A stretch of 64,000 nucleotides of DNA from Patescibacteria group bacterium. Its GTDB lineage: Bacteria > Patescibacteriota > CPR2 > UBA1875 > CAIMLA01. The stretch lies in the NCBI GenBank assembly GCA_041738615.1, contig JBGSPL010000001.1, forward strand, positions 158,564 through 222,563, in the 5' to 3' direction. The notes beneath the pieces were generated by a model, which saw nothing but the letters and a program-made list of their open reading frames with translations, was not told the DNA's origin and ran no database searches. A program made the translations under genes and the position numbers. Shown here piece after piece: positions 10,318-28,998 of the stretch. The stretch's first letter is position 1; each line of letters begins with the position of its first letter.

Positions 10318-10392
10318 TGGGGAGTCGCCAAGTGGTAAGGCACCGGTTTTTGGTACCGGCATTCGGGGGTTCGAGTCCCTCCTCCCCAGCCA
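10318..10392 (+). tRNA. tRNA-Gln (anticodon UUG)
   Basis: Cloverleaf read by eye: acceptor TGGGGAG/CTCCCCA, D-arm GCC-AAGTGGTAA-GGC, anticodon stem CCGGT/ACCGG with loop TTTTGGT, T-loop GGTTCGAGTCC, encoded CCA. Confidence 0.85.
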
Positions 10393-10433
10393 GAGAAAGG
10401 CTCCTCACTTGTGGGTGGCCTTTCTCTGTTTGT
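10393..10433 (+). terminator. Hairpin GAGAAAGGC...GCCTTTCTC after the tRNA, followed by TGTTTGT
   Basis: 9-bp inverted repeat immediately 3' of the tRNA. Confidence 0.5.
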
Positions 10434-10707
10434 AGGGTATGAGGGCGAGACCCCCGATATTGCCAAAACTGTGAGTTGGTGGAGACATAAATGAACTGTA
10501 TTGCTGTGTTTGAATAATAAGCACAGGTCTCCAAGATAGCGGTGAGAAGAAGGCTTGCCTTCGAGTCCCCGCCCGAACGGCTGTATACGTTCAGTCGCGC
10601 GGGCCTCCTACCCAGCCAAAAAGCAGTCACTCACTTGTCGGGAGACTTCTTTTTGTATTGCCTTAGATTCAATAGAAACGATGTGTTACACTTATTACAA
10701 TTAAGGG

Positions 10708-11493
10708 GTGGGTGTGAAGTTGGATTCTAAGGAAAGAACAAAATTTGCGAACGGCCGTTCTGGCGACAACATCTTTGTCAACGCCAAGCCGCTCGCTATC
10801 AGCTCGTATCGGAGCCCGAGAGCCATCGACTGGCAAGTTCTTTTTGTACATACGCGCCGAGTAAGCTTTGCTGCTCTGGGATTTCTCTGCGTCTCCTCAT
10901 TCGTTTTCCTCTCTACCCAATCCCCTTCCACCAAAACGACTGCACAGGACACCCAGAGCCTGCAGTACTCGGCAGCCGAGAATCCCCTATCCTTGACAAC
11001 CGCTGATAGTGCCACGACTACCGTTTCCCTCATTGGTCCTATCACTCGCCTCAAAGAAGCAGAAGACAAGGCCGAAAGTGATAAAGTGGGCATTGCTAGC
11101 GTGATATTGGCCCAGGTTTCAAGCAAAGGCAATTTTGAAGACACTTACGCATCTGCAGAGAAGAAATATGGAGTCTCGAGGTATTTACTGAAGGCAGTTC
11201 ACTACGTAGAAACCAGGCAAAAGGGTGACACCGATATCGAGAGTTACGCCGGAGCGCAAGGACCGATGCAGTTTATGCCAGAAACATTTGCAGCATATGC
11301 CCAGGATGGAGATGACGATGGCAGGAGGCAGATTACAGACGTTCACGATGCCATCTTCACAGCAGCAAAGCACCTGGCAATTCACGCCAAAACGAACGGT
11401 GGTATCAAGGCAGCACTATATAATTACAACCATAGTAACGCCTATGTGGAGCAGGTACTCTCTGTTGCGCGCGGGTTTGGATATACTCAGTAA
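10708..11493 (+). CDS. Membrane-anchored lytic transglycosylase (SLT domain) protein
   Basis: 261 aa, GTG start after AAGGGG; N-terminal TM; C-terminal ...ETRQKGDT...AGAQGPMQFMPETF... matches the SLT catalytic Glu and MQFxP motif. Confidence 0.72.
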   Translation: MGVKLDSKERTKFANGRSGDNIFVNAKPLAISSYRSPRAIDWQVLFVHTRRVSFAALGFLCVSSFVFLSTQSPSTKTTAQDTQSLQYSAAENPLSLTTADSATTTVSLIGPITRLKEAEDKAESDKVGIASVILAQVSSKGNFEDTYASAEKKYGVSRYLLKAVHYVETRQKGDTDIESYAGAQGPMQFMPETFAAYAQDGDDDGRRQITDVHDAIFTAAKHLAIHAKTNGGIKAALYNYNHSNAYVEQVLSVARGFGYTQ

Positions 11494-11518
11494 GTCCGTT
11501 CCCTCCCAGCCTTTTGCC

Positions 11519-11536
11519 GCGATTTGTGATATAATA
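11519..11536 (+). promoter_or_regulatory. Extended -10 promoter (TGaTATAAT) of an orphan transcription unit
   Basis: TGTGATATAAT at 11525-11535; no annotated gene downstream on this strand before terminator 11762. Confidence 0.45.
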
Positions 11537-11761
11537 TATCTATAGAAAATAAAGAGACTCAACTGAATAAGTTTATCGAGGACTACAACTCCCTTTTCAA
11601 CGTTCCAAACTATAAGGCGAATGTTGCTATTTGCGCTAGTTATCGGAAGGATCACGAAAACGAGTTCCGCACCTCGGATTGGGCTATCGAGAAGCATCGA
11701 AAGCGCTTTATGGACTGGATGTCACGGCAAAAGGAATCTGATCTCTCGGCTATTCAAAAAT

Positions 11762-11789
11762 AGAGACCCTTACTGGGTCTCTATTTTAG
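11762..11789. terminator. Bidirectional intrinsic terminator AGAGACCC-TTACT-GGGTCTCT
   Basis: Perfect 8-bp stem flanked by A-run and T-run, between convergent units. Confidence 0.7.
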
Positions 11790-12722
11790 ATCGGAAAGTA
11801 TATTATTGAGTTCCTCTTGACTCGAGACCAGCATCGCTCGTTTGCGAATGTCTTTTGCTCCTGCGAAGCCCTGAATATACCACCCTAGGTGTTTGCGCAT
11901 CATTCTCATGGCGTGCTCTTCGTCACCGACAAAATCAATCGTAGCTTGCGCTTGCCTTTTGATCACCTCGGAAATCTGCTCAAAAGTTATCTTATTATCT
12001 TTTTTAGTCTTAATCTCTTGAAATAGCCACGGCTTGCCCAGACATCCTCGTCCAACCATAATTCCTGAAAGCCCAGGAGTTTGTATTCTCTCTTGTGCAA
12101 TCCGCCAAGAGCTAATGTCGCCATTCCCGATGATTGGCATTTGGACCTGGGCGGTAATTTCTGCAATTTTGTCCCAGTCAGCCTCGCCAGAGTAGCCTTC
12201 TTTAGTGGTCCGACCGTGTATGGTGACCGCATCGATACCGATTTTTTCAAGTTCGAGGATAAATGGTAAAACATCTTTTTCCATCCAACCCAAGCGAACT
12301 TTAACCGATAGTTGGCCATGATAACCATCCCTCACCTTTTTCATTAGCTCGAGGGCTTTCGGATAGTCTTTGAGTAGGGCCGATCCGCATTCATTACCGG
12401 TTATCTTTGGTGCCGGACAACCCATATTGATGTCGATTCCTGCAGGCTTCAGTTCCTTCGCAACAATATTTGCAGCCTTTGCAATAGTGTCGCCATCGTA
12501 ACCGAAAATCTGCACAATCACCGGCTGCTCCTCCGGAAGAAAAGAGGCAATTCGGAGCGTTCTTTTGGGATTGTGAGTGATGGCGTTGGCTGAAAACATT
12601 GGTGTAAAAACGATATCGGCACCAAATTCTTTGCAAATTGAACGAAATGGCAGAGTCGTAATATCTGCCATAGGTGCCAGCACAACTGCCGGCTTTTTGA
12701 TTGTTGACCAAGCGAAAGCCAA
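11781..12722 (-). CDS. dus: tRNA-dihydrouridine synthase (Dus family)
   Basis: 313 aa; LAPMADITTLPFR...TIHGRT...PIIGNGDI TIM-barrel FMN motifs. Confidence 0.85.
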   Translation of the reverse strand: MAFAWSTIKKPAVVLAPMADITTLPFRSICKEFGADIVFTPMFSANAITHNPKRTLRIASFLPEEQPVIVQIFGYDGDTIAKAANIVAKELKPAGIDINMGCPAPKITGNECGSALLKDYPKALELMKKVRDGYHGQLSVKVRLGWMEKDVLPFILELEKIGIDAVTIHGRTTKEGYSGEADWDKIAEITAQVQMPIIGNGDISSWRIAQERIQTPGLSGIMVGRGCLGKPWLFQEIKTKKDNKITFEQISEVIKRQAQATIDFVGDEEHAMRMMRKHLGWYIQGFAGAKDIRKRAMLVSSQEELNNILSDLK

Positions 12723-28759: not shown

Positions 28760-28789
28760 CTTGTCGACCCAATAAAAAATCTTCGATTT
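28760..28789 (-). terminator. Intrinsic terminator CTTCGA-GAAA-TCGAAG plus T-run upstream of rplJ, insulating rplJL from the island
   Basis: Minus-strand hairpin followed by ATTTTTTATTGG. Confidence 0.55.
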
Positions 28790-28998
28790 CTCGAAGACAC
28801 ATTGGAATAAAATTCATAAAGCTTATGCGTTTTACTCCCTCGGTAGCGGATTAAGCCCTGTGGGCAGCTACTGTCTCCGGAAATTACCTTTGTATTTTAG
28901 CAAATTATCAGGAGAAGGTCAAGTTCAATATCTAAAGGCGTTAGTGCCGGCGCCCTGTGTGGTTGCCGGCACTAACAGTACCCCTTGCGCCGTTGGCG

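Follow-up and report, generated by a model that had tools for sequence, protein, structure and literature searches.

A conserved small-protein gene of Patescibacteria with a putative leaderless mRNA and AUA as its candidate start codon

The window analysed here, the whole stretch of 64,000 nucleotides taken from contig JBGSPL010000001.1 of a Patescibacteria group bacterium, contains a short unit in which an extended -10 element, an open frame and a strong hairpin follow one another (Table 1). A preliminary description of this DNA had proposed a promoter-to-terminator unit at this place, and the proposal is borne out as all three elements can be read in the sequence; besides, promoter, frame and terminator hairpin recur at homologous loci, indicating that their arrangement is more than chance. 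From the promoter onwards the order is TTTG TG A TATAAT ATATCT ATA GAA AAT AAA GAG ACT CAA CTG AAT AAG TTT ATC GAG. The frame is open from 11530 to 11760, an in-frame TGA (11527-29) lying before it and a TAG (11761-63) closing it. Its canonical start codons (ATG/GTG/TTG) are limited to ATG 11710 and ATG 11719, located 17 and 14 codons from the end, and this is the reason why the frame is missing from the mechanical list of ORFs. Some details of the preliminary description have to be corrected. The -10 element was rightly recognized but placed at 11525-11535, while TG-a-TATAAT actually begins at 11527; ATG 11710 was rightly located but is not the only ATG; and CTG 11563, taken as the only upstream candidate start, shares the frame with the near-cognate triplets ATA 11536, ATA 11542, AAG 11569 and ATC 11575. 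A simple consensus scan listed neither the promoter nor the terminator hairpin. The promoter lacks a recognisable -35 element; the U-run is short, and part of it pairs with an A-run.

Table 1. Elements of the small-gene locus, in positions of the window
Feature	Position	Strand	Basis
Degenerate copy of the tRNA-Gln 3' end, just 5' of the promoter	11500-11511	+	Repeat family D2
Extended -10 promoter, TG-a-TATAAT	11527-11535	+	Read directly from sequence
ATA, putative transcription start site (A at 11542) and most likely initiation codon	11542-11544	+	Deduced from geometry
Predicted CDS of a 73-residue protein, IENKETQLNKFIEDYNSLFNVPNYKANVAICASYRKDHENEFRTSDWAIEKHRKRFMDWMSRQKESDLSAIQK, stop codon TAG (11761-63) included	11542-11763	+	Homologues, codon constraint
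CTG (Leu8), judged an internal codon	11563-11565	+	Clade and family codon comparison
Predicted bidirectional intrinsic terminator hairpin, common to the convergent dus	11757-11787	both	Folding

The hairpin has a 13-bp stem (11757-69 / 11775-87) and a 5-nt loop, with a predicted dG of -20.8 kcal/mol on the + strand and -20.2 on the - strand, and none of 200 shuffled sequences folds as well (z about -5.7; -5.65). It is GC-rich and followed by a U-run on either side, of four U on the + strand, where part of it pairs with the A-run upstream, and of five U on the - strand. The stop codons of two genes fall inside this structure: the small frame ends there with its TAG and so does, on the - strand, a convergent gene of the Dus family (TAG 11781-83) that extends over 11781-12722. 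At three homologous loci (L001, L002, and L012) a hairpin is likewise found directly after the stop codon of the small gene, each one unlike that of the window in sequence.

On its 5' side the unit is preceded by a tRNA-Gln(UUG) gene (10318-10392), the 3' end of which occurs in copies at 10378-10391 (the genuine one), 10604-10617 and 11500-11511 (both degenerate); as repeat family D2 these are delimited as 10380-91 (the genuine tRNA end), 10606-17 and 11500-11, and the first two belong to a 45-nt repeat (10378-10422 / 10604-10648). The copies bracket about 1.1 kb of DNA, including an ORF for an SLT-domain lytic transglycosylase (10708-11493), and the bracketed segment of ~1.1 kb is absent from the syntenic locus L001. 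They resemble remnants of att sites, left by one or two integrations at this tRNA. The small gene of L001 and L002 lies directly after the 3' end of tRNA-Gln. Elsewhere in the window, the only cis-regulatory RNA called is a ribosomal protein L10 leader detected with Rfam at 28765-28898 on the - strand (64.2 bits vs a gathering threshold of 44).

The preliminary description had considered three identities for this unit, an sRNA, a small protein using a non-canonical start and a recent pseudogene. Using the 77-residue conceptual translation as query, 12 homologous proteins were retrieved (best E 5e-38); a profile search of 1.8 billion cluster representatives yielded 53 with E<1e-3, almost all of them of 73-116 residues, and scans of DNA collections added 9 genomic and 54 metagenomic loci (about 60 homologous loci). 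The closest relatives, L001 (= L003), L002 and L012, form with the window a clade of four distinct sequences that have a common synteny, PBP1A - tRNA-Gln - small gene, the last converging on dus - cysS. Counted from the codon aligned with ATA 11542, each copy has exactly 73 codons, and none has an indel or an internal stop. Between the window and L001, 36 of the 47 nucleotide differences are at third positions, with 32 synonymous and 8 non-synonymous codon changes; L002 and L012 differ by 29 synonymous and 9 non-synonymous codon changes. Within the clade pS reaches 0.78-0.97 (saturated) against a pN of 0.08-0.19, giving pN/pS ratios of 0.10-0.24, which are raw and uncorrected values, as pS lies beyond the Jukes-Cantor limit and NG86 dN/dS cannot be corrected. 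The encoded proteins are 73-89% identical and retain 28 of the 28 residues that are invariant in the family.

Homologues, third-position bias and an excess of pS over pN support the small protein among the three options, and the pattern of substitutions indicates that the gene is under purifying selection. We regard it as nearly certain that the locus is a genuine, independently transcribed coding gene. The contrary idea, of a non-coding sRNA or of a pseudogene in decay whose frame is a relic left after the loss of its ATG, draws on the absence of a canonical start codon and on the behaviour of gene callers, which miss the gene or extend it wrongly (in P0001 and P0002, through tRNA-Gln). Against a pseudogene, four lineages devoid of ATG have diverged to a pS of about 0.8 and still encode proteins with 73-89% identity and no indel or stop, all family-invariant residues being kept; neither a dN/dS near 1 nor frameshifts nor stops, the marks of a decaying gene, were found in any of them. 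Against an sRNA, the substitutions are of the coding type, Rfam gave no match for the small gene either at the gathering threshold or at E<=1, and the transcript body (11542-11756) folds no better than its shuffles (z -0.31). Both options are thus hardly credible. The preliminary description had also suggested that relatives be searched for an intact, ATG-initiated homologue; such homologues do exist, and their ATG is at the position aligned with ATA 11542 of the window.

All the named loci belong to Patescibacteria/CPR, including CPR2 and MAGs labelled "Candidatus Saccharibacteria", "Patescibacteria group" and WS5, and judging from these searches the protein family is restricted to Patescibacteria/CPR and previously undescribed. 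No match above threshold was obtained with Pfam, PHROGs, NCBIfam, PADLOC or PDB sequence profiles. The AlphaFold2 model, built on an alignment of 13 sequences, is a four-to-five-helix bundle (pLDDT 85.6, pTM 0.72) in which helix 1 is predicted to span residues 4-18, and comparison of the predicted fold with BFVD structures returned no match. The family shares the invariant pattern FI.xYN..FNVP...C..Y...H.N.F...W.I.KHRKRFMDWMS, AARCAYCGNAARCGNTTYATGGAYTGGATG being a conserved block. The most conserved feature is a nearly invariant basic helix, WSI-KHRKRFMDW (W-S-I-x-K-H-R-K-R-F-M-D-W), and based on its composition one may guess at binding to nucleic acids or to the ribosome. The genomic neighbourhood was also considered as a guide to function and was set aside, as the flanking ORFs vary from locus to locus and the dus/cysS/PBP1A synteny is limited to the four-member clade; adjacency to a tRNA gene is not general among the loci either. 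A few longer family hits (P0047, 323 aa; P0023, 129 aa) carry the domain in an N-terminal or internal position and have no Pfam domains. On one contig two paralogues are found ~2 kb apart (L026, 820 and 2977), each one preceded by its own TGnTATGAT-N6-ATG.

Small CPR proteins annotated as "hypothetical protein", for instance C4544_04385 (P0012) of a candidate division WS5 bacterium, belong to the same family as the product of the window gene (51-89% identity). Annotated CPR members of this type have an ATG start that gene finders recognise; in contrast, the copies in the window and in L012 cannot be called with the standard start codons. The gene has been called as a protein of 103 aa (P0001) in the closest public genome (GCA_964501135.1) and of 97 aa (P0002) in a JGI contig. 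These are mis-extended calls (L001 5001-5312 and L002 83-376), whose N-termini are the translated tRNA-Gln gene or its remnant ("...FGGSSPSSPA..."): as no canonical start is available, the caller reached upstream for an ATG. Since the copies of this clade are either mis-called or uncallable, the clade is under-represented in protein databases.

The position of the start codon was approached by comparing, at every locus, the DNA located 5' of the conserved FIEDYN motif. In 34 of about 50-52 distinct loci the sequence (G)TGnTAnnnT is followed, after exactly 6 nt, by ATG, and in 4 by GTG, the remaining loci including a few with ATG or GTG 8-9 nt after the -10 element; altogether, about 45 of some 52 distinct loci have TGnTAnnnT at a matching distance from the gene start. 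With the hexamer at -12..-7 and a 6-nt discriminator, +1 falls on the A of ATG and no room is left for a Shine-Dalgarno sequence, and the layout of the family appears to be that of leaderless mRNAs. The window conforms to this geometry, having TATAAT at 11530-35, the spacer ATATCT and then ATA 11542, so that the -10 hexamer lies at -12..-7 relative to the putative transcription start site and the 6-nt discriminator is all that separates it from codon 1, with neither a 5' UTR nor a Shine-Dalgarno sequence. The loci with GTG as leaderless start (L038 2989, L054 133, L060 2968, and L063 412) constitute a distant subfamily (30-40% identity) whose N-terminus is longer by about 10 residues and whose loci have a TTGATT -35-like element, which the window does not have.

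At least five other long ORFs of the window begin with the same layout (63144, 29833, 27679, 20850, and 6931, all on the - strand), and so does PBP1A (10225, - strand), with a 7-nt spacer and GTG. Leaderless transcripts seem, from this recurrence of the motif, to be common in the genome from which the window derives. Other genes of the window carry clear GAGGGA or GAAGGA Shine-Dalgarno motifs. In 379 kb of related DNA, TGnTAnnnT-N6 at the 5' ends of ORFs is followed by ATG in 25 cases, by GTG in 6, and by any other triplet in 1-2, and a genome-wide use of ATH at leaderless starts was not seen in this DNA.

It is at this very position that the window clade departs from its family. The promoter and the 6-nt spacer are kept, as is the second codon (GAA), and the codon at the position of ATG is ATA in the window and ATC in L001, L002, and L012, that is, ATH in four out of four; the 5'-terminal AUG or GUG of leaderless genes is thus replaced throughout the clade by one and the same class of near-cognate triplet. 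Codon 1 is moreover the sole near-cognate codon before the invariant Phe11 that is common to the four members. Codons 1-8 stay in frame and have the periodicity of coding sequence, variable sites at the first, second and third codon positions numbering 2, 2, and 6 (Fisher p = 0.028, from a small sample of 24 sites in four sequences). In all four members the first 15 or so nucleotides of the predicted mRNA stay unpaired, an unpaired 5' end being required for leaderless initiation (PMC8459731). A further case was found outside the clade, at L057 1814 (= L058 about 938), where TGGTATTAT-CACGCA-ATC places ATC at the start position; L057 and L058 are an identical sequence from two metagenome assemblies, encoding a protein 31% identical to that of the window, and in L062, the locus most closely related to them, the aligned codon is ATG. 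On the comparison of these aligned codons, the change from ATG to ATC has occurred at least two times in the family. As a counterpoint, conservation of the A at +1 and the T at +2 could reflect the needs of transcription initiation instead of decoding.

Based on this evidence, we favour, with moderate confidence, a monocistronic leaderless mRNA of about 11542-11790 that would be translated from its 5'-terminal AUA. The start would then be non-canonical, in line with one of the options of the preliminary description, and the CTG at 11563 that was named there as a candidate start is probably not the one, as the layout of the family points to ATA 11542. Other triplets in the frame were discarded: ATA 11536 would lie in the untranscribed discriminator and corresponds to AGT in L012, and ATG 11710 would produce a 17-residue peptide while conservation spans all 73 residues. 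An upstream extension of the frame through recoding of UGA (code 25) was rejected as well, as PBP1A, CysRS, and Dus are intact under table 11 and the sequence upstream consists of the promoter and the tRNA remnant.

The main competitor is CTG 11563 itself. The gene and its promoter would be the same, the 5' ATH would be dead, and translation would begin at this CTG (TTG in L002) after a leader of 21 nt, resulting in a 66-residue protein with the N-terminus MNK followed by FIEDYNSLFNVPNYK. Bacteria are known to use CTG and TTG as start codons, if weak ones, and one or the other occupies codon 8 in three of the four members of the clade; the called starts of P0006 and P0011 (MNKFITEYN) align with this codon, Met being found there in many homologues, and in the window a purine-rich AAAGAGA is located 6-12 nt upstream. 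The codons of the clade, CTG, CTG, TTG and CTA, are nevertheless synonymous for Leu, and the CTA of L012, two mismatches away from AUG, cannot initiate although L012 is equally constrained. In the family as a whole this column holds M, L, V, I or T, including ATA, ACT, and GTT codons, as an ordinary hydrophobic residue of helix 1 would. No Shine-Dalgarno sequence precedes CTG 11563, and nothing SD-like is found upstream in L002 and L012 (ACAGAAACT); the genes of the window that are led by a Shine-Dalgarno carry an evident GAGGGA or GAAGGA. Codons 2-8 stay in frame and vary at the third position, and in L057, where position 1 is likewise ATC, no start-like codon precedes the conserved core. Initiation at CTG 11563 is, on these comparisons, unlikely.

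Decidedly improbable are the other routes that can be conceived, which comprise initiation at ATC 11575 or AAG 11569, read-through from the SLT gene or from tRNA-Gln, and a non-standard initiation that needs no near-cognate codon. They owe their appeal to the fact that the small frame is in frame with the upstream SLT ORF, that several near-cognate triplets are present and that translation in CPR is unstudied. A fusion with the SLT ORF, or read-through from it, was rejected given that two in-frame stops, TAA 11491 and TGA 11527, separate both frames and that this ORF is missing in L001, L002, and L012. ATC 11575 encodes the invariant Ile12, next to the invariant Phe11, and a start there would remove conserved residues, while the AAG at codon 10 is not conserved, being AAA in L001 and L002.

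For translation from AUA 11542, the following sequence of events can be hypothesized. The -35-independent extended -10 element (11527-35) would start transcription at about A11542, producing an mRNA of roughly 250 nt without a 5' UTR or Shine-Dalgarno sequence, and the hairpin shared with dus would end the transcript at about 11790. The ancestral 5' AUG would have changed to AUC in the lineage and then to AUA in the window. Ribosomes would load at the 5' end and initiate on the 5'-terminal AUA with the initiator tRNA.

Bacterial leaderless mRNAs are known from lambda cI in Escherichia coli and from the large leaderless transcriptomes of Mycobacterium, Caulobacter, Deinococcus and Streptomyces. 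The window gene resembles them, in geometry only, by its -10 element 6 nt before the start codon, the lack of a 5' UTR and of a Shine-Dalgarno, and the unstructured 5' end, and differs from them by the 5' triplet, which is AUA or AUC in the window clade and AUG (GUG in mycobacteria) in the known cases. Near-cognate starts are in turn represented by infC and pcnB, both with AUU, which are conserved, sensitive to IF3 and expression-limiting. The window gene is similar to these in that a near-cognate AUH is kept across related genomes and in its likely low or conditional expression; unlike them, it is predicted to be leaderless, the starts of infC and pcnB being led by a Shine-Dalgarno that the window gene does not possess.

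In E. coli and Caulobacter leaderless initiation is strongly dependent on AUG, GUG being used as well in mycobacteria, and in Caulobacter leaderless reporters carrying AUC, AUA or AUU showed a drastically reduced expression (PMC8459731). Conversely, E. coli ribosomes can use AUA in the manner of AUG when tested in vitro with an optimised SD-led context, AUA then becoming sensitive to the nutrient state and ppGpp (PMC5499595). In mitochondria, leaderless mRNAs do begin with AUA, AUU or AUC (PMC11775629, PMC8459731), relying on f5C/m5C34 in tRNA-Met and on the extensions of IF-3mt (PMC11775629). The window gene is like mammalian mitochondrial leaderless mRNAs in having a 5'-terminal AUH triplet as putative start, a likeness in form only, and is unlike them in that ATH starts are limited here to one gene and ATA and ATC serve as ordinary Ile codons inside it.

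As the studied bacteria suggest, an AUA start would be expected to give a much lower yield, and the change of start codon would probably represent a gene-specific down-tuning or a conditional control of the protein. Because ATH starts are gene-specific and not genome-wide, an altered initiation machinery need not be assumed. More tentatively, and as a possibility to which we do not fully commit, CPR ribosomes may be able to initiate on 5'-terminal AUA or AUC in a mitochondria-like manner, the change from ATG to ATH having been used at least twice to throttle or condition a small basic protein. To our knowledge, leaderless initiation on AUA or AUC is undocumented for free-living or symbiotic bacteria, and our search of the literature on leaderless translation in CPR found nothing relevant.

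The gene of the window is missed by current gene callers, and the analysis defines a compact, highly conserved, CPR-specific protein family that had no annotation. CPR ribosomes lack several ribosomal proteins and biogenesis factors. If AUA and AUC are the true start codons in this clade, the gene would provide a natural example of a leaderless bacterial mRNA that starts with AUH, one that arose twice and is kept by purifying selection. It would then challenge the rule that leaderless initiation in bacteria needs a 5' AUG or GUG, and it would offer a simple model for the study of start-codon selection on CPR ribosomes.
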